Positions 13,838-63,811 of a stretch of 64,000 nt of DNA are shown here, piece after piece. The position numbers and the translations under genes are program-made. The stretch comes from a virus, in the IMG/VR virus record IMGVR_UViG_3300045988_184285; one strand, written 5' to 3'. How positions within the stretch are numbered: the stretch's first letter is position 1; every line of letters begins with the position of its first letter. Under the pieces are notes generated by a model. The model did not search any database, was not told the origin of the DNA, and was given only the letters and a program-made list of their open reading frames with translations.

Positions 13838-13872
13838 TTTATATTATACCACATAAATATAATGTGGTCAAT
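13838..13872 (-). promoter_or_regulatory. class A promoter (TTGACC-N14-TGTGGTATAATATA) with inverted repeat CCACAT-N7-ATGTGG in spacer
   Basis: minus-strand 'TTGACCacattatatttaTGTGGTATAAT'; heads the sec/sortase operon. Confidence 0.65.
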
Positions 13873-13930
13873 ACAAATTGCGAATAAAAAAATGCCCCGC
13901 CGAAGCAGGGCATGAAAAATCAGAAATGTT

Positions 13931-14584
13931 TTAACGAATACCGTATCCCATATCTTGCCGTACAAGCTTTATCTCCGAGGTGTCCTTTAGACTGTCGGGG
14001 AATATCTCCTTGATATAATCCTGATAGCGTTTCGTAACATACTTTACGCCGAGCTCCTCCGGCTTGATACCTTCAGCCGCTTTTCTGATACGCTGATTCG
14101 ATGCGCGGGAAGCACATTTCTTGCACAAGCAAAGTGCGACATTAGAGATACCTTCACTGCCGCAGACAGCGCATTTTGCATGCACTTTATCTCTGTCCCA
14201 TTCCTTTATTTCTTTTCCGTTTTCCGGGTCTATCACAAGGCGGTTGCGCTTACAACGACGCACGTAAAACACACTTTGGCAACAGGCAACACACAAGCCT
14301 AAATCTCTGCGGTAGTGAGAAGAACGTCCATCTGTGACTTCACCGCACAAAAGACACTTGTTCTGAGAAACAATGCTCTGGTACTTGAGAACCTTATTCA
14401 CCAATAACCTTTTTATAAGTTCACCGGTCAAATCGGGTTTCGGAGGATACATGTCCCACCCATTTACTGGGAACAAGCTGGTGAAATCGCTCCATTCATC
14501 ATCGGAAAACGAGCAGCCGACAGGCTTGAGCACCTTTGGAAGCTTGTTGGACCATACTTTTTCGGCATTGGATTTCTTCGGCAT
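13931..14584 (-). CDS. cysteine-rich hypothetical protein (putative zinc-binding)
   Basis: start at ATG (MPKKSN) with AAAGGAG RBS; multiple CxxC pairs. Confidence 0.5.
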   Translation of the reverse strand: MPKKSNAEKVWSNKLPKVLKPVGCSFSDDEWSDFTSLFPVNGWDMYPPKPDLTGELIKRLLVNKVLKYQSIVSQNKCLLCGEVTDGRSSHYRRDLGLCVACCQSVFYVRRCKRNRLVIDPENGKEIKEWDRDKVHAKCAVCGSEGISNVALCLCKKCASRASNQRIRKAAEGIKPEELGVKYVTKRYQDYIKEIFPDSLKDTSEIKLVRQDMGYGIR

Positions 14585-14615
14585 ACAGATTGCTCCTTTG
14601 AGGGGGGTGACAAAA

Positions 14616-16040
14616 TCAATATTCTGCCACGATGTTATCATCGGGTTTTTTCTTTATCAAAGAGTCCCCGAATCGATTTACATGTTCTTTCGGCGGTTCA
14701 ATGACCTCGATATCGACATCCTCCACTTTTTCGATTTCGTCAGAGGATTCATCGCCCTTTTCGTCCTGAACACTATCCGATGGATTGGTGGTTTGTGCGT
14801 CCTCCTTTGCGACATCCGAAAGCAAATCAAATGTCAGCTGAGAATTTGAAGACGCTGGTTTCTTTTCTCTTTTTTTGGTTGTTTGGCGTTTTTTGGAAGT
14901 CCTTTTGGGTTTTACATGTTCACTGGAACCAACCTCACTTACTGCAGAACTTATTGTGCTTGTATCGGCAACAATGTCCACGGAAGCTGTGCCCTTGTCT
15001 GTTTCGGTTATAGGTTCTTGAACTTCTTCGTTTTTCGGTAAATCACCTTTATCAGGTTGCCTTGCTTTTAAGGCAGAAGGCTTCTGCACGTTCGCTTCCG
15101 GTTCTTCTTGCACCACGGCCTCTTCCTTGACTGGAATCTTGGCGGCTCCTTTTTGCAAAAGGCCATCGATTGCTACAACGGCCTCAGATTTCTTTTCTTC
15201 GGACTCCGCCTTCTGTACTGCACAGCGAATCGCCTCGGCTTTTTCTTTCTTTTCTTTTTCTGCTGATGCGGTATTTTCGCTTTCTTTTATCTCAGCAGGC
15301 ACATTCATGTCGGATTTCGAGTTCCACCACTTTTCAATAGTAGTAATCGTTCTCTCTACTAATATTATACCACAAAATTTGTGGTTTGACAACTTGCGGC
15401 TCGGTACGAAGCATACGATGCCACACAGAGAAGTAACCAATAAAACGATAGCAAACCCCGTGTCAAAGATGAAGCAGATGAACGATACCGGAATCAGCAG
15501 TTCGCAAATGCCGCGCATAATAAATGCCGCTTTATCTCCTTGGTCTTTTCGGTTTTGCATAAAACTGTCTCTCCCCTTCTGTGGGTGATAAGACAAACCA
15601 CTTAATAAGCCATTTGTTGCCCAATCACAAGGTATCTCGTAGGTCTTTTCTCCTAAGCAGTCTGTGTACTGAATTACGGTAATATCGAAGTAATCACCAT
15701 TCTTTTGCGATGCCAAGAATGTCTGTAAGAATTCCTTTCCAACAGACCGAGCAGGAACGATGATTGTTTCGATGCCGTCAGAATCTTTTGCAGCGATATC
15801 TACCACATAGGTATCATCTTCACCGCGCCATACGTTCTGCACAATACCGCGCACCAATATGCCACGCTTATGAACACGCCTCCCCATAAAAGTAAAGGAG
15901 TTTTCAGAATACCATGTATTTACCATGCAATACGCAGCAATAATAAGCAATGTAAGGTACTTAACATTTATGGTGATAATGCTTAAAGAAAAAATATACG
16001 GAACGAGCATCAGCAAGATGAATGATACAAAGCTATTCAC
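14616..16040 (-). CDS. membrane protein with long charged low-complexity C-terminal tail
   Basis: 474 aa ORF; contains an embedded class A promoter motif at 15358-15395. Confidence 0.5.
15358..15395 (-). promoter_or_regulatory. class A promoter motif embedded in CDS (TTGTCA-N14-TGTGGTATAAT, IR CCACAAA-TTTGTGG)
   Basis: minus-strand 'TTGTCAaaccacaaatttTGTGGTATAATATT' inside ORF 14616..16040. Confidence 0.45.
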
Positions 16041-16720
16041 TTTGAATCACCGCCTTCACCAAATCCATCCAAAAAGACGAGGTTGTCTTTGGTGTGTTTC
16101 TTTTTTTGCTCAACAACTTCTTTTTCGGCTTCTTGTTTGACTTTATTGTACGCTTCCAACGGACTCATGGAAGGTGCTGATTTTTGCGTATCAGCGGGGA
16201 CGATAGTATCATCGTTTTTGACGGCTGTCGTTACACGACTGCAGGTTACGAGATTTCTGTCATTAAACGCAGTTACGCCATCCTCATTTGATTTAAAAAT
16301 AAAGTCATACATAGCACCAACGAAGAAAGAGTTTTTAACGTTTTTCTTTGATTCGTTGACGCTGAGGAAAAAATCGTATTTTCCGTTTTTGTCGATAAAC
16401 TCTCCGTCCTCATTGACAGGGATGATTCGATAGGTTGAAATCTGCTGGCGAATCATATTTTTGCTGGACTCATCGGATACAACAATTCCCTTAACAGTCT
16501 TATACCGTTCATTTTTTTCATCATTATGAATCTCATAAATTTGAAAAATAAAATAAGCAGCGCACATCAAGCCGATAAGAAGAATCTTCCACTCCTGCAT
16601 TACAACAACACCGAAAATAGAAGCAATCAAGAACAGAATAGCGATAAGCCCATTCTTCACATACATAGATGTGATAAGAGATTTGCAATCCGGATGATAA
16701 ATCTTAGACATTTTATTCAC
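16037..16720 (-). CDS. membrane protein (2 TM)
   Basis: 227 aa; ATGA overlap with downstream gene. Confidence 0.5.
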
Positions 16721-17699
16721 CGCCTTCTACGTTAGAATCTTTATCTGCGCTGTTTGTCGTACTGGCAGACTGTAAAATGCTTGCACCCTGCTCATTCAGA
16801 ACATCCTCGATTGTCTTGTTGCGTAGTTTGATGCTGGACAAAACGACATCGTAAGACCCCCCAGACGAAGTAGTTACCCGTGCGATATATTGAATGGTCG
16901 TATCCCCAGCAAGCAATGCGCCGTCTATTGTTTGCTTCTGACGATTTCCATCCTTATCTTCGGTTTCAACCACATACATATCCTGTGACGCTTTTTGTGC
17001 AGATACAGAAGACGTCATAACAATATCTCCGGCCTTCATATCAGAGGTCGCGAACTTATTTACGATGGAACCTGTTCTATCCACAAAGAACACAGGAGTA
17101 TCCTGCTGCATCTTCCCATCGCCATCTACGAAATGCGAACCGCATAAGGATTCGTATTCGTTGACACTCAAAGTCTTATAGCTGAGTTCTGAATCCTCGA
17201 TGGTATCCCCGGAAGGAATATCCACATTTACGACAGCGACCTTATACTCTCCGGTAAGCTGTCCACTGATTTGGACCCAATTTGTGTATACGAAGAAGCC
17301 AATAGCGATGGCGACAACGGCAACAATGAACATTGCGATACCGATGTTACGCTTGTTGTTGTTTTTGATGATTTGTGCCTGTTCAAGGATTTCTTTGCTG
17401 GCATGCTTAGTATCTTTAAGCGTCTGGTTTGCTTCATCCAGTGTATCGCTTGTCTTTGTAAGCACTTCGTAAGCTTTGGTTTCTCTATGGCCGACATTCA
17501 CATTCAGCCCTTTTGCGCCATTGTTATTGGCAGACTTTGCGTTGTTGTATTCGGCGCGAAGCGTTTCCACAACAGAATCGTCAAGCGTCATCTGTTCCCC
17601 GTTAGGCAGAATTACCGTACCATCATCATAGACATCGAAAACACGTTCTTTGCCTTCATACATGGCGCGTACCTGACCGATAACATAATGTTCGTTCAT
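16713..17699 (-). CDS. membrane-anchored protein (possible SAF/CpaB-like domain)
   Basis: start at ATG (MNEHYVIGQ); single TM then YKVAVVNVDIPSGDTIEDSEL; family call weak. Confidence 0.4.
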   Translation of the reverse strand: MNEHYVIGQVRAMYEGKERVFDVYDDGTVILPNGEQMTLDDSVVETLRAEYNNAKSANNNGAKGLNVNVGHRETKAYEVLTKTSDTLDEANQTLKDTKHASKEILEQAQIIKNNNKRNIGIAMFIVAVVAIAIGFFVYTNWVQISGQLTGEYKVAVVNVDIPSGDTIEDSELSYKTLSVNEYESLCGSHFVDGDGKMQQDTPVFFVDRTGSIVNKFATSDMKAGDIVMTSSVSAQKASQDMYVVETEDKDGNRQKQTIDGALLAGDTTIQYIARVTTSSGGSYDVVLSSIKLRNKTIEDVLNEQGASILQSASTTNSADKDSNVEGGE

Positions 17700-17713
17700 G
17701 TTTATCACACCCC

Positions 17714-63298: not shown

Positions 63299-63310
63299 AA
63301 AATTGCAAGA

Positions 63311-63345
63311 AAATAAAAGAAAAAGTCCGTCTAAAAAAGACGGAC
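63311..63345 (-). terminator. intrinsic terminator downstream of the mini-CRISPR array
   Basis: stem gtccgtct/agacggac, minus-strand TTTTTCTTTTATTTT follows. Confidence 0.6.
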
Positions 63346-63388
63346 CTGAAAACTGAAGTATCTGTTATAGTGTATTTGCCATTGCTGT

Positions 63389-63489
63389 ATTTCAATCTAA
63401 CGCAACCAATGCGGGTTGCAACGGTCTCAGCACTCAGACCATCAGGCACAACACCATTTCAATCTAACGCAACCCATGCGGGTTGCAAC
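63389..63489 (-). CRISPR. orphan mini-CRISPR array: two 34-nt type I-C-like repeats, one 33-nt spacer
   Basis: repeats 63389-63422 and 63456-63489 differ at one position; in transcribed (minus) orientation 'GTTGCAACCCGCATGGGTTGCGTTAGATTGAAAT', palindromic stem plus ...GATTGAAAT tail as in I-C repeats; spacer 63423-63455. Confidence 0.7.
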
Positions 63490-63659
63490 AGCAAACTTGT
63501 ACAAACGAAGCAATAAGTTGTCATGCATTCTGTACAATGTTTGTCTGCTTTTTGACCAAACAATATGGTCAGATACTACTTACCGCAATGGAATCATATC
63601 CTTTCATCATATTATTTGGTGCGAAGCGACCAGCAAAAATAGCTAATCCGCGAAGAATA

Positions 63660-63695
63660 ATTATATTATACCACAGAAGGTATGAATGGTCAAGT
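63660..63695 (-). promoter_or_regulatory. class A promoter reading toward the mini-array (leader promoter)
   Basis: minus-strand 'TTGACCattcataccttcTGTGGTATAATATAA'. Confidence 0.6.
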
Positions 63696-63779
63696 CGAGC
63701 GAAGAGCCGTTGAAAACAGTGCAAGAAGTTGAGATAAGCGATGTATCGAAAAAGTAGGTTGCATATCAGGTGATGAGAA

Positions 63780-63811
63780 TTGAAAAGGAGACCGATTTGT
63801 GGTATAATATA
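63780..63811 (+). promoter_or_regulatory. class A promoter on plus strand (TTGAAA-N14-TGTGGTATAATATAG)
   Basis: plus-strand 'TTGAAAaggagaccgattTGTGGTATAAT'; 44 nt upstream of ATG at 63855. Confidence 0.65.

Follow-up and report, generated by a model that had tools for sequence, protein, structure and literature searches.

Near-consensus promoters, probably of the sigma-A housekeeping type, recur across a Hodor-type megaplasmid of the human gut

Twelve near-identical promoter-like sites, built around TTGACy-N14-TGTGGTATAATATA and here called class A, recur in a 64,000-nucleotide stretch of DNA (IMG/VR record IMGVR_UViG_3300045988_184285; hereafter the window) that is part of a G2-type 'Hodor' conjugative megaplasmid of the human gut. 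These sites are most probably promoters read by the host's housekeeping holoenzyme, RNA polymerase with sigma-A, the primary sigma of the sigma-70 family; we put the probability of this reading at roughly 0.85. Judged from sequence, the motif is the ordinary strong sigma-A consensus of Gram-positive-type bacteria and is not plasmid-specific, and neither a private factor nor copied cassettes would be needed to explain it. An earlier note on this DNA had read the sites as a family of near-identical promoters, more uniform than a generic sigma-A promoter needs, and had proposed that a special factor or a recent spread of cassettes lay behind them. The first part of that reading is supported; the second is not.

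The sites form a discrete class. With at most one mismatch, TGTGGTATAAT is matched 11 times in the window against 0.95 expected, a number reached by none of 100 shuffles, and the 14-mer TGTGGTATAATATA is matched 10 times against 0.01 expected. A chance origin of the motif is ruled out by the shuffles. Six copies of TGTGGTATAATATA are exact (13840, 27956, 29873, 31755 and 63662 on the minus strand, 63798 on the plus strand). A TTGnnn hexamer lies exactly 17 bp upstream of the -10 hexamer at every site, and it begins TTGAC in 8 of the 12. The -10 hexamer is an exact TATAAT in eight sites, the rest being TATTAT, TATCAT, CATAAT and CATATT, while positions -17 to -14 read TGTG in eleven and GGTG in one. 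A weight matrix built from the same 12 sites and run over the 128 kb of two-strand sequence scored them at 20.9-39.6 bits, against 3.4 for the next best position in the window and a shuffle maximum of 14.4. Because the matrix is self-trained its absolute scores are inflated, and it is the gap between 20.9 and 3.4 bits that argues for a discrete class and a complete list. All the recurrences described in the earlier note are present, with the -35 hexamer at the 17-bp spacing it gave, and so are its weaker copy (40907-40938, TGTGGCATATT), its degenerate copy (22164-22195, TGTGGTATCAT, TTGCCG) and the inverted repeats that it saw in two spacers, at 13843 and 15364. The putative promoters, the genes they face and the associated terminators are given below.

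13840..13871, minus strand: promoter TTGACC-N14-TGTGGTATAATATA, with spacer dyad CCACAT-N7-ATGTGG and a core invariant in six plasmid variants (L001-L006); a terminator at 13892-13913 lies just upstream; the minus-strand unit comprises a 171-amino-acid (aa) gene (13280-13795), a zf_Tbcl gene, a 91-aa gene and SecY/SecG/SecE
15361..15392, minus strand: promoter TTGTCA-N14-TGTGGTATAATATT, within the 474-aa open reading frame (ORF) 14616-16040, with spacer dyad CCACAAA-T-TTTGTGG
19753..19784, plus strand: promoter TTGACT-N14-TGTGGTATTATATA, before a 232-aa gene (19845-20543, plus strand); invariant in L001-L006
22164..22195, minus strand: degenerate promoter TTGCCG-N14-TGTGGTATCATGAT, upstream of an actin-like ParM/Alp7A partition gene and divergent from a 76-aa Xre-type helix-turn-helix (HTH) gene (22239-22469, plus strand)
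27956..27987, minus strand: promoter TTGACT-N14-TGTGGTATAATATA, before 68-aa (27709-27915) and 239-aa (27075-27794) genes; a hairpin and T-run just upstream were seen by eye
29873..29904, minus strand: promoter TTGATT-N14-TGTGGTATAATATA, before a 76-aa gene and a flotillin/SPFH-like 511-aa gene (28056-29591)
31755..31786, minus strand: promoter TTGACC-N14-TGTGGTATAATATA, before a 183-aa gene (31184-31735), whose GAGGAGG ribosome-binding site and ATG follow 16 nt past the predicted start; terminator 31804-31833 just upstream
32708..32739, minus strand: promoter TTGACT-N14-GGTGGTATAATATA, before a 235-aa gene downstream of the 2669-aa gene; terminator 32746-32779 just upstream; orthologous to a promoter at 4625-4654 of the related locus L127, which follows a 2625-aa gene
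40907..40938, minus strand: weaker promoter TTGACT-N14-TGTGGCATATTGTA, before the 2669-aa surface protein gene (32819-40828)
41144..41173, minus strand: strong intrinsic terminator (13-bp stem, T8) immediately following the 7323-aa gene, which it separates from the 2669-aa gene's own promoter at 40907-40938
63265..63296, minus strand: promoter TTGACT-N14-TGTGGCATAATATA, before the 7323-aa surface protein gene (41187-63158); terminator 63323-63347 just upstream
63662..63693, minus strand: promoter TTGACC-N14-TGTGGTATAATATA, before a non-coding leader and a two-repeat CRISPR-like mini-array that run to the terminator 63323-63347
63780..63811, plus strand: promoter TTGAAA-N14-TGTGGTATAATATA, before a gene with its start at 63846/63855 that extends beyond the window

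The evidence that this is a housekeeping consensus comes from its anatomy and from its occurrence elsewhere. The earlier note had argued that fourteen identical bases in the -10 region exceed what a generic sigma-A promoter needs. However, 10 of the 14 bases of TGTGGTATAATATA are known sigma-A contacts, namely TRTG (-17 to -14) and TATAAT, and the other four, G at -13 (within TGTGG) and ATA, are likewise what most often flanks TTGAnn-N17-TATAAT in unrelated Clostridia loci. In Firmicutes the extended -10 takes the form TRTG, and Terrabacteria have an AT- or AG-rich discriminator (PMC12641261); a passage of PMC2613000 cites Voskuil and Chambliss 2002 for work on the TRTG '-16 region'. We scanned one genome per bacterial or archaeal species (596 Gb) for the exact pattern TTGAC-N14-TGTGGTATAATATA, which spans 33 nt with 19 specified bases, and found at least 120 genome loci where by our own arithmetic about 4 are expected by chance. 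The same pattern occurs in at least 120 viral loci of IMG/VR. Among the genome matches listed, ~24 are from Ruminococcus and ~50 from other Clostridia (Oscillospiraceae, Acutalibacteraceae and others), with the rest from Saccharibacteria/Patescibacteria, Chloroflexota, Armatimonadota and one Abditibacteriota genome; none of the matched loci listed is related to the window.

Among these matches, the motif lies directly upstream of genes for transfer RNA (tRNA)-Gly (L014), tRNA-Pro (L053), tRNA-Leu (L115) and transfer-messenger RNA (tmRNA; L047), and of phage tRNA genes (L149). Its presence before tRNA and tmRNA genes in unrelated genomes marks it as a housekeeping consensus that is not replicon-specific, and as an element-specific class confined to the element it therefore fails. 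A special factor loses its appeal when the identical pattern stands at no fewer than 240 unrelated loci. Some of these loci are as dense as the window, with 4 sites per 8 kb in each of L029 and L113 and 5 in 9.7 kb in L149. As a separate observation, a goat-rumen metagenome-assembled genome labelled Abditibacteriota, RGIG3508, contributes 12 of the 120 genome matches listed (L007, L010, L032, L033, L061, L064, L077, L084, L110, L111, L115 and L124), so the exact consensus promoter must be extraordinarily frequent in that genome.

The placement of the sites is that of promoters. All twelve point at the next gene or non-coding RNA, 16 to ~170 nt away. Eleven lie in intergenic gaps; the other is within an ORF, yet still upstream of the next gene. 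At 13840..13871, 31755..31786, 32708..32739 and 63265..63296, strong intrinsic terminators lie a few bases upstream of the -35 (coordinates above), giving a layout of terminator, promoter, gene. The 2669-aa, 235-aa and 183-aa genes each have a terminator and promoter of their own. The Hodor paper, in contrast, reports that the giant gene and three neighbours are co-transcribed, as one operon (PMC12934698), whereas in the window a strong terminator and a separate promoter stand between the genes; the published description may reflect read-through. Iterons, partition sites and recombination sites were considered as identities for the repeats and rejected on the -35/-10 geometry, the orientation towards the next gene and the match to tRNA and tmRNA promoters.

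The promoter cores are also conserved. L001-L006 are 92-99% identical to the window. Among them, the segment from the -35 to about +10 carries no substitutions at 13843, 15364 and 19771, with many in the flanks on both sides, and cores are substitution-free in three of the four sites compared. Because the six variants represent only ~2-3 independent haplotypes, this invariance is supportive and not decisive. One of the variants, L006, carries a gene for an IS605-type OrfB/TnpB (Cas12f-like) protein at 7055-8158, inserted between a 217-aa gene and the class A promoter of the 171-aa/SecY unit.

The site at 15364 is the one that is not intergenic. It lies within the 474-aa ORF, which is called as one gene in every assembly, and there TGTGGTATAAT reads Cys-Gly-Ile-Ile. 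A homologue of this protein in the relative L129 (585 aa, 25% identical) has KCGII at the aligned position, again encoded by TGTGGTATAAT, and a TTGACT lies 17 bp upstream, giving TTGACT-N14-TGTGGTATAAT. In L001-L006, ~50 nt around 15364 are invariant while flanking codons vary. Where a coding sequence evolves this fast, the retention of a promoter within it provides good evidence of selection acting on the DNA motif itself.

Relatives further removed retain the motif at places corresponding to those in the window, namely upstream of the zf_Tbcl-SecY operon, after the ~2600-aa gene and inside the 474/585-aa gene. The locus L127 (SecY 90% identical, guanine-plus-cytosine (GC) content 48.6%), which probably belongs to Hodor group G1, has three TTGACT/TTGTTT-N14-TGTGGTATAAT sites, one after its ~2600-aa gene and two upstream of zf_Tbcl-SecY genes. 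L129 (SecY 59%) has five. Both keep the promoter elements with diverged spacers. No class A site was found in L128 (SecY 71% identical), so that not all SecY-carrying relatives have the motif; the gaps between L128 genes instead hold extended -10 boxes resembling TTGGTATAAT, with no clear -35. We also observed that these relatives encode RRXRR-domain proteins of 465 and 512 aa. The features noted here are at L128 3430-3975 and L127 upstream of 19224. The L128 gene is preceded by a structured-looking, GC-rich untranslated stretch of ~500 nt, which may serve an IscB-type nuclease as a guide-RNA-like element.

What remains unusual on the plasmid is the density and uniformity of the sites. Our comparison DNA was the sequence around ascertained matches, from genomes that may not be that of the host, with the ascertained sites themselves excluded. 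On this basis TGTGGTATAAT occurs 1.1 times per 10 kb in the window (1.5 in 1-33 kb) versus ~0.3 in Ruminococcus and other Clostridia (Poisson p=0.006), a roughly threefold density. The match to the housekeeping consensus that the earlier note had named as grounds for giving up its reading is found, while the lack of replicon enrichment that it named alongside holds only in part. In TTGAnn-N17-TATAAT sites, TGTGG is present upstream in 6 of 7 cases in the window versus 10 of 80 in the comparison set (p=1e-4), and ATA downstream in 7 of 7 versus 17 of 80 (p=6e-5). The sixth base of the -35 (-30) is where the plasmid sites part from the sigma-A consensus: it is never the consensus A in the 15 TTGAC sites of the window, L127 and L129 (12 T, 3 C), as against A in 117 of 192 generic TTGAC sites (61%; p=2e-6 versus the plasmid family) and in 12 of 24 Ruminococcus-only sites.

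Some of this weighs against the housekeeping reading. The pyrimidine at -30 departs from the generic consensus consistently, in every family site; to account for the uniformity above the comparison set, selection or a host dialect has to be invoked; and the co-transcription reported in the Hodor paper fits read-through and does not by itself demonstrate internal promoters. The first two of these observations, together with the density and with the discreteness of the class, which has no sites of intermediate score, would be expected if the plasmid had a dialect of its own, in which G at -13, ATA and the -30 pyrimidine are read by a Hodor sigma, an activator or a protein bound at the -16/-10 region, and the sites make up a plasmid regulon. 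We consider this quite improbable. All the strongly conserved positions are known sigma-A contacts, and the identical sequence is frequent in non-Hodor genomes, where it drives tRNA and tmRNA genes. The supposed hallmarks are also not exclusive: G occupies -13 in 17 of 27 non-ascertained TGTGnTATAAT sites of the Clostridia loci, and ATA is not family-wide, being replaced by AGG, AGA or AAT in L127 and L129. No sigma or polymerase domain was found among the ~40 window ORFs scanned, ~80% of the plasmid lying outside the window. A related proposal, that the Hodor family keeps a private, policed dialect TTGACy-N14-TGTGGTATAATA with a pyrimidine at -30, including the intragenic promoter that fixes CGII, we regard as unlikely. 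If true, such a dialect would be tuned to a plasmid-encoded transcription factor or to equal expression across Bacillota classes, and would be both a determinant of the proposed broad host range and a signature for finding the host. The differences between plasmid and generic promoters are real but modest, and a private factor is not required; selection for activator-independent maximal strength, the preferences of the host or shared promoter ancestry can explain them.

The recent modular spread suggested in the earlier note would mean that one promoter cassette was duplicated around the plasmid. Across the 12 sites, mean pairwise identity is only 0.30 in the 25 nt upstream, 0.33 in the spacer and 0.32 in the 22 nt downstream, against 0.27-0.29 for within-site shuffles, and the small excess fits the T-rich tracts by the -35 and the -16 region. 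The sites also differ in their upstream terminators and in the leaders downstream. With spacers and flanks unrelated, the window promoters are not recent copies of each other, and the cassette explanation is highly improbable here. It does draw on pairs of sites in the relatives that share spacer and downstream sequence (L127 4644 and 9084; L129 9213 and 13546), from which local promoter duplication can occur in the plasmid family, and the family-wide TTGACT could be inherited. A further proposal would add to the housekeeping reading without replacing it: the promoters at 13843 and 15364 may in addition be repressor-controlled, their dyads serving as candidate operators for a dimeric protein that blocks the -16/-10 region. 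Both dyads use the promoter's TGTGG as one arm, with 6-bp arms and a 7-nt gap at 13843 and 7-bp arms and a 1-nt gap at 15364. The dyad arms reach 6 bp or more at 2 of the 12 sites versus 11 of 242 generic sites, the latter representing ~3 distinct sequences. The two promoters lie next to each other, separated by 1.5 kb and in the same direction, their dyads are invariant in L001-L006, and unrelated loci have similar dyads: two have ACCACAATGAATTGTGG, and nine in IMG/VR have ACCACACGAATGTGTGG. However, arm spacings of 7 nt and 1 nt are hard to fit to one protein, the dyads are absent at the corresponding L127 and L129 promoters, and it is the whole core, beyond the dyad alone, that is invariant in L001-L006. 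No cognate regulator was found, the sole HTH protein of the window adjoining the par promoter, and the excess of dyads is borderline significant and was noticed after the fact. We therefore see operator function at these two sites as possible though doubtful. The same palindromic consensus promoter, TTGAC(G/A)TACCACACGAATGTGTGGTATAATATA, recurs in nine IMG/VR contigs (L154, L176, L198, L202, L205, L220, L227, L243 and L244) and a second, TTGACAGACCACAATGAATTGTGGTATAATATA, in two genomes (L060 and L099); operators may commonly be designed as dyads based on the TGTGG of the extended -10.

Under the housekeeping reading, each class A site would present sigma-A with a T-rich upstream stretch, a TTGACy -35, a 17-bp spacer, a TGTG extended -10, TATAAT and an ATA discriminator. 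Promoters so equipped would form open complexes without activators, and for that reason would be expected to be strong and largely constitutive. They would head insulated units that include the Sec/trigger-factor module, the two giant surface proteins, the partition gene, the mini-CRISPR array and several genes of no assigned role. We infer that their uniformity would reflect selection on a mobile element for activator-independent expression in any Bacillota host that it enters, to which the host's own dialect may add.

This reading has precedents. The '-16 region', the TRTGn extended -10 of Bacillus subtilis sigma-A promoters, was reportedly described by Voskuil and Chambliss in 1998. The early promoters of phages T5, SPO1 and phi29 are near-consensus and strong and exploit the host polymerase, and those of the IncP-1 plasmid RK2 are near-consensus and held down by KorA/KorB. 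The likeness to the phage and RK2 cases is that of a mobile element whose promoters resemble the host consensus more than those of most host genes, which would give activator-independent expression; the phage contigs L149 and L160 of IMG/VR make the same dense use of TTGACA-N14-TGTGGTATAAT. No kor-like global repressor circuit is evident for class A because its spacers are unrelated and share no operator. In their elements the plasmid sites are the same as the '-16 region' sigma-A promoters of B. subtilis and other Gram-positive bacteria, having TTGACx, 17 bp, TRTG, TATAAT, an AT-rich discriminator and T/A-rich upstream sequence (PMC12641261). They differ in their tightness: chromosomal sigma-A promoters scatter around the consensus, whereas on the plasmid nearly all those in 50 kb lie within at most one base of it.

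The assignment of the window to a G2-type Hodor rests on its gene content. Window ORFs matched SecY, weakly SecG, FKBP/Trigger_C (trigger-factor-like) and actin-like ParM/Alp7A; SecE was matched in near-identical loci, and the two giant ORFs, 7323 aa and 2669 aa long, contain an MBG_2 domain. Hodors carry a hyp-SecY-SecG-SecE-trigger factor module, proteins of 7309-7704 aa and ~2642 aa and a degraded type I-C array, with a GC content of 44.6% in group G2 (PMC12934698). The window shares the module, the pair of MBG-domain giants, a ParM-like gene, a degraded type I-C-like array, ~44-45% GC outside the giant genes and a human-gut metagenome origin. Hodors measured 211-389 kb in the first 19 genomes described and averaged 357 kb over 38 curated ones, and their host is named no finer than Bacillota (PMC12934698). 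A protein identical residue for residue to the window's SecY is present in 2294 blocks of public assemblies, and the six such places displayed lie on ENA contigs of 208-254 kb with sample labels indicative of human gut cohorts. The closest chromosomal SecY proteins are ~49% identical to that of the plasmid, and several are named Gemmiger; on a Gemmiger-like chromosomal contig the S10 ribosomal-protein operon is preceded by TTGCAA-N17-TATCAT with the spacer ending TGTGa. The DNA examined amounts to the 64 kb and about 10 kb more of the plasmid. Rep_3, ParA/ParB, type IV secretion and sortases, which also mark G2 Hodors, lie beyond the window or went unrecognised in it, and only the ParM/Alp7A-like gene was seen. 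PHROGs and Pfam searches of ~40 window ORFs came back mostly empty, the 323-aa gene adjoining the trigger factor had no Pfam match, Rfam at its gathering threshold found nothing in the whole window, and megablast of 20-24 kb of the window against phage and plasmid collections gave no match.

Several other features of the window were noted. The mini-array consists of a 34-nt repeat, GTTGCAACCCGCAT[G/T]GGTTGCGTTAGATTGAAAT, in two minus-strand copies (63456-63489 and 63389-63422) that are 67 nt apart and leave one 33-nt spacer. Its transcript would have a leader from ~63658, under the class A promoter at 63662-63693, and contains no ORF. It probably corresponds to the type I-C array that is described as 'degraded' in Hodors; its spacer has no exact match in IMG/VR. 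A second promoter-like family, TTGCAAATTGCTGCAAAGT-N2-3-TATAAT/TATACT, has 4 matches with at most 3 mismatches versus 0.03 expected. Its members lie on the minus strand at 1935-1953, 4698-4716, 6985-7003, ~8160-8185, 41077-41104 and 31118-31136 (the last in an ORF), and others occur elsewhere (L250 14507, 19537 and 20375; L251 13252). The spacer of this family is conserved, with a dyad TTGCA..TGCAA, and downstream come a conserved leader, ..AAGTATATyCGATAAATAAAA.., and then ~90-130 nt of untranslated RNA with a hairpin end. Its members may form a regulon under a repressor, or they may be small RNAs or leaders of one family. The family dominates the window left of 8.2 kb, where the genes are, as we read them, reminiscent of anti-defence or leading-region genes. 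In the same region a 138-bp segment appears twice, at 2984-3121 and 3568-3705, ~580 bp apart and ~90% identical to a stretch of L001; it reaches from the end of one small gene into the start of the one that follows (..TATTTGAGGAGGACTTATTTTGGAAAATATGTATG..).

The promoters described here are new to description, on a recently described element, while the kind of promoter is already known. The word 'promoter' occurs 0 times in the Hodor preprint (Yuan et al., bioRxiv 2026; PMC12934698), and Hodor transcription had previously been described solely as co-transcribed blocks. With these sites, promoters and terminators are mapped for the first time over ~50 kb of a megaplasmid that is very widespread in the human gut, and the conserved surface and secretion module is laid out as separately promoted, terminator-insulated units. 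More generally, a long identical -10-region motif in a Gram-positive-type replicon would mostly be the known TRTG-extended consensus and not a new signal. The Ruminococcus/Oscillospirales skew of the motif matches listed, together with the Gemmiger SecY, is a weak but testable pointer to a host in Oscillospirales. Any Bacillota housekeeping polymerase should be able to transcribe units of this kind, in keeping with the movement between distant hosts that has been proposed for the plasmid.

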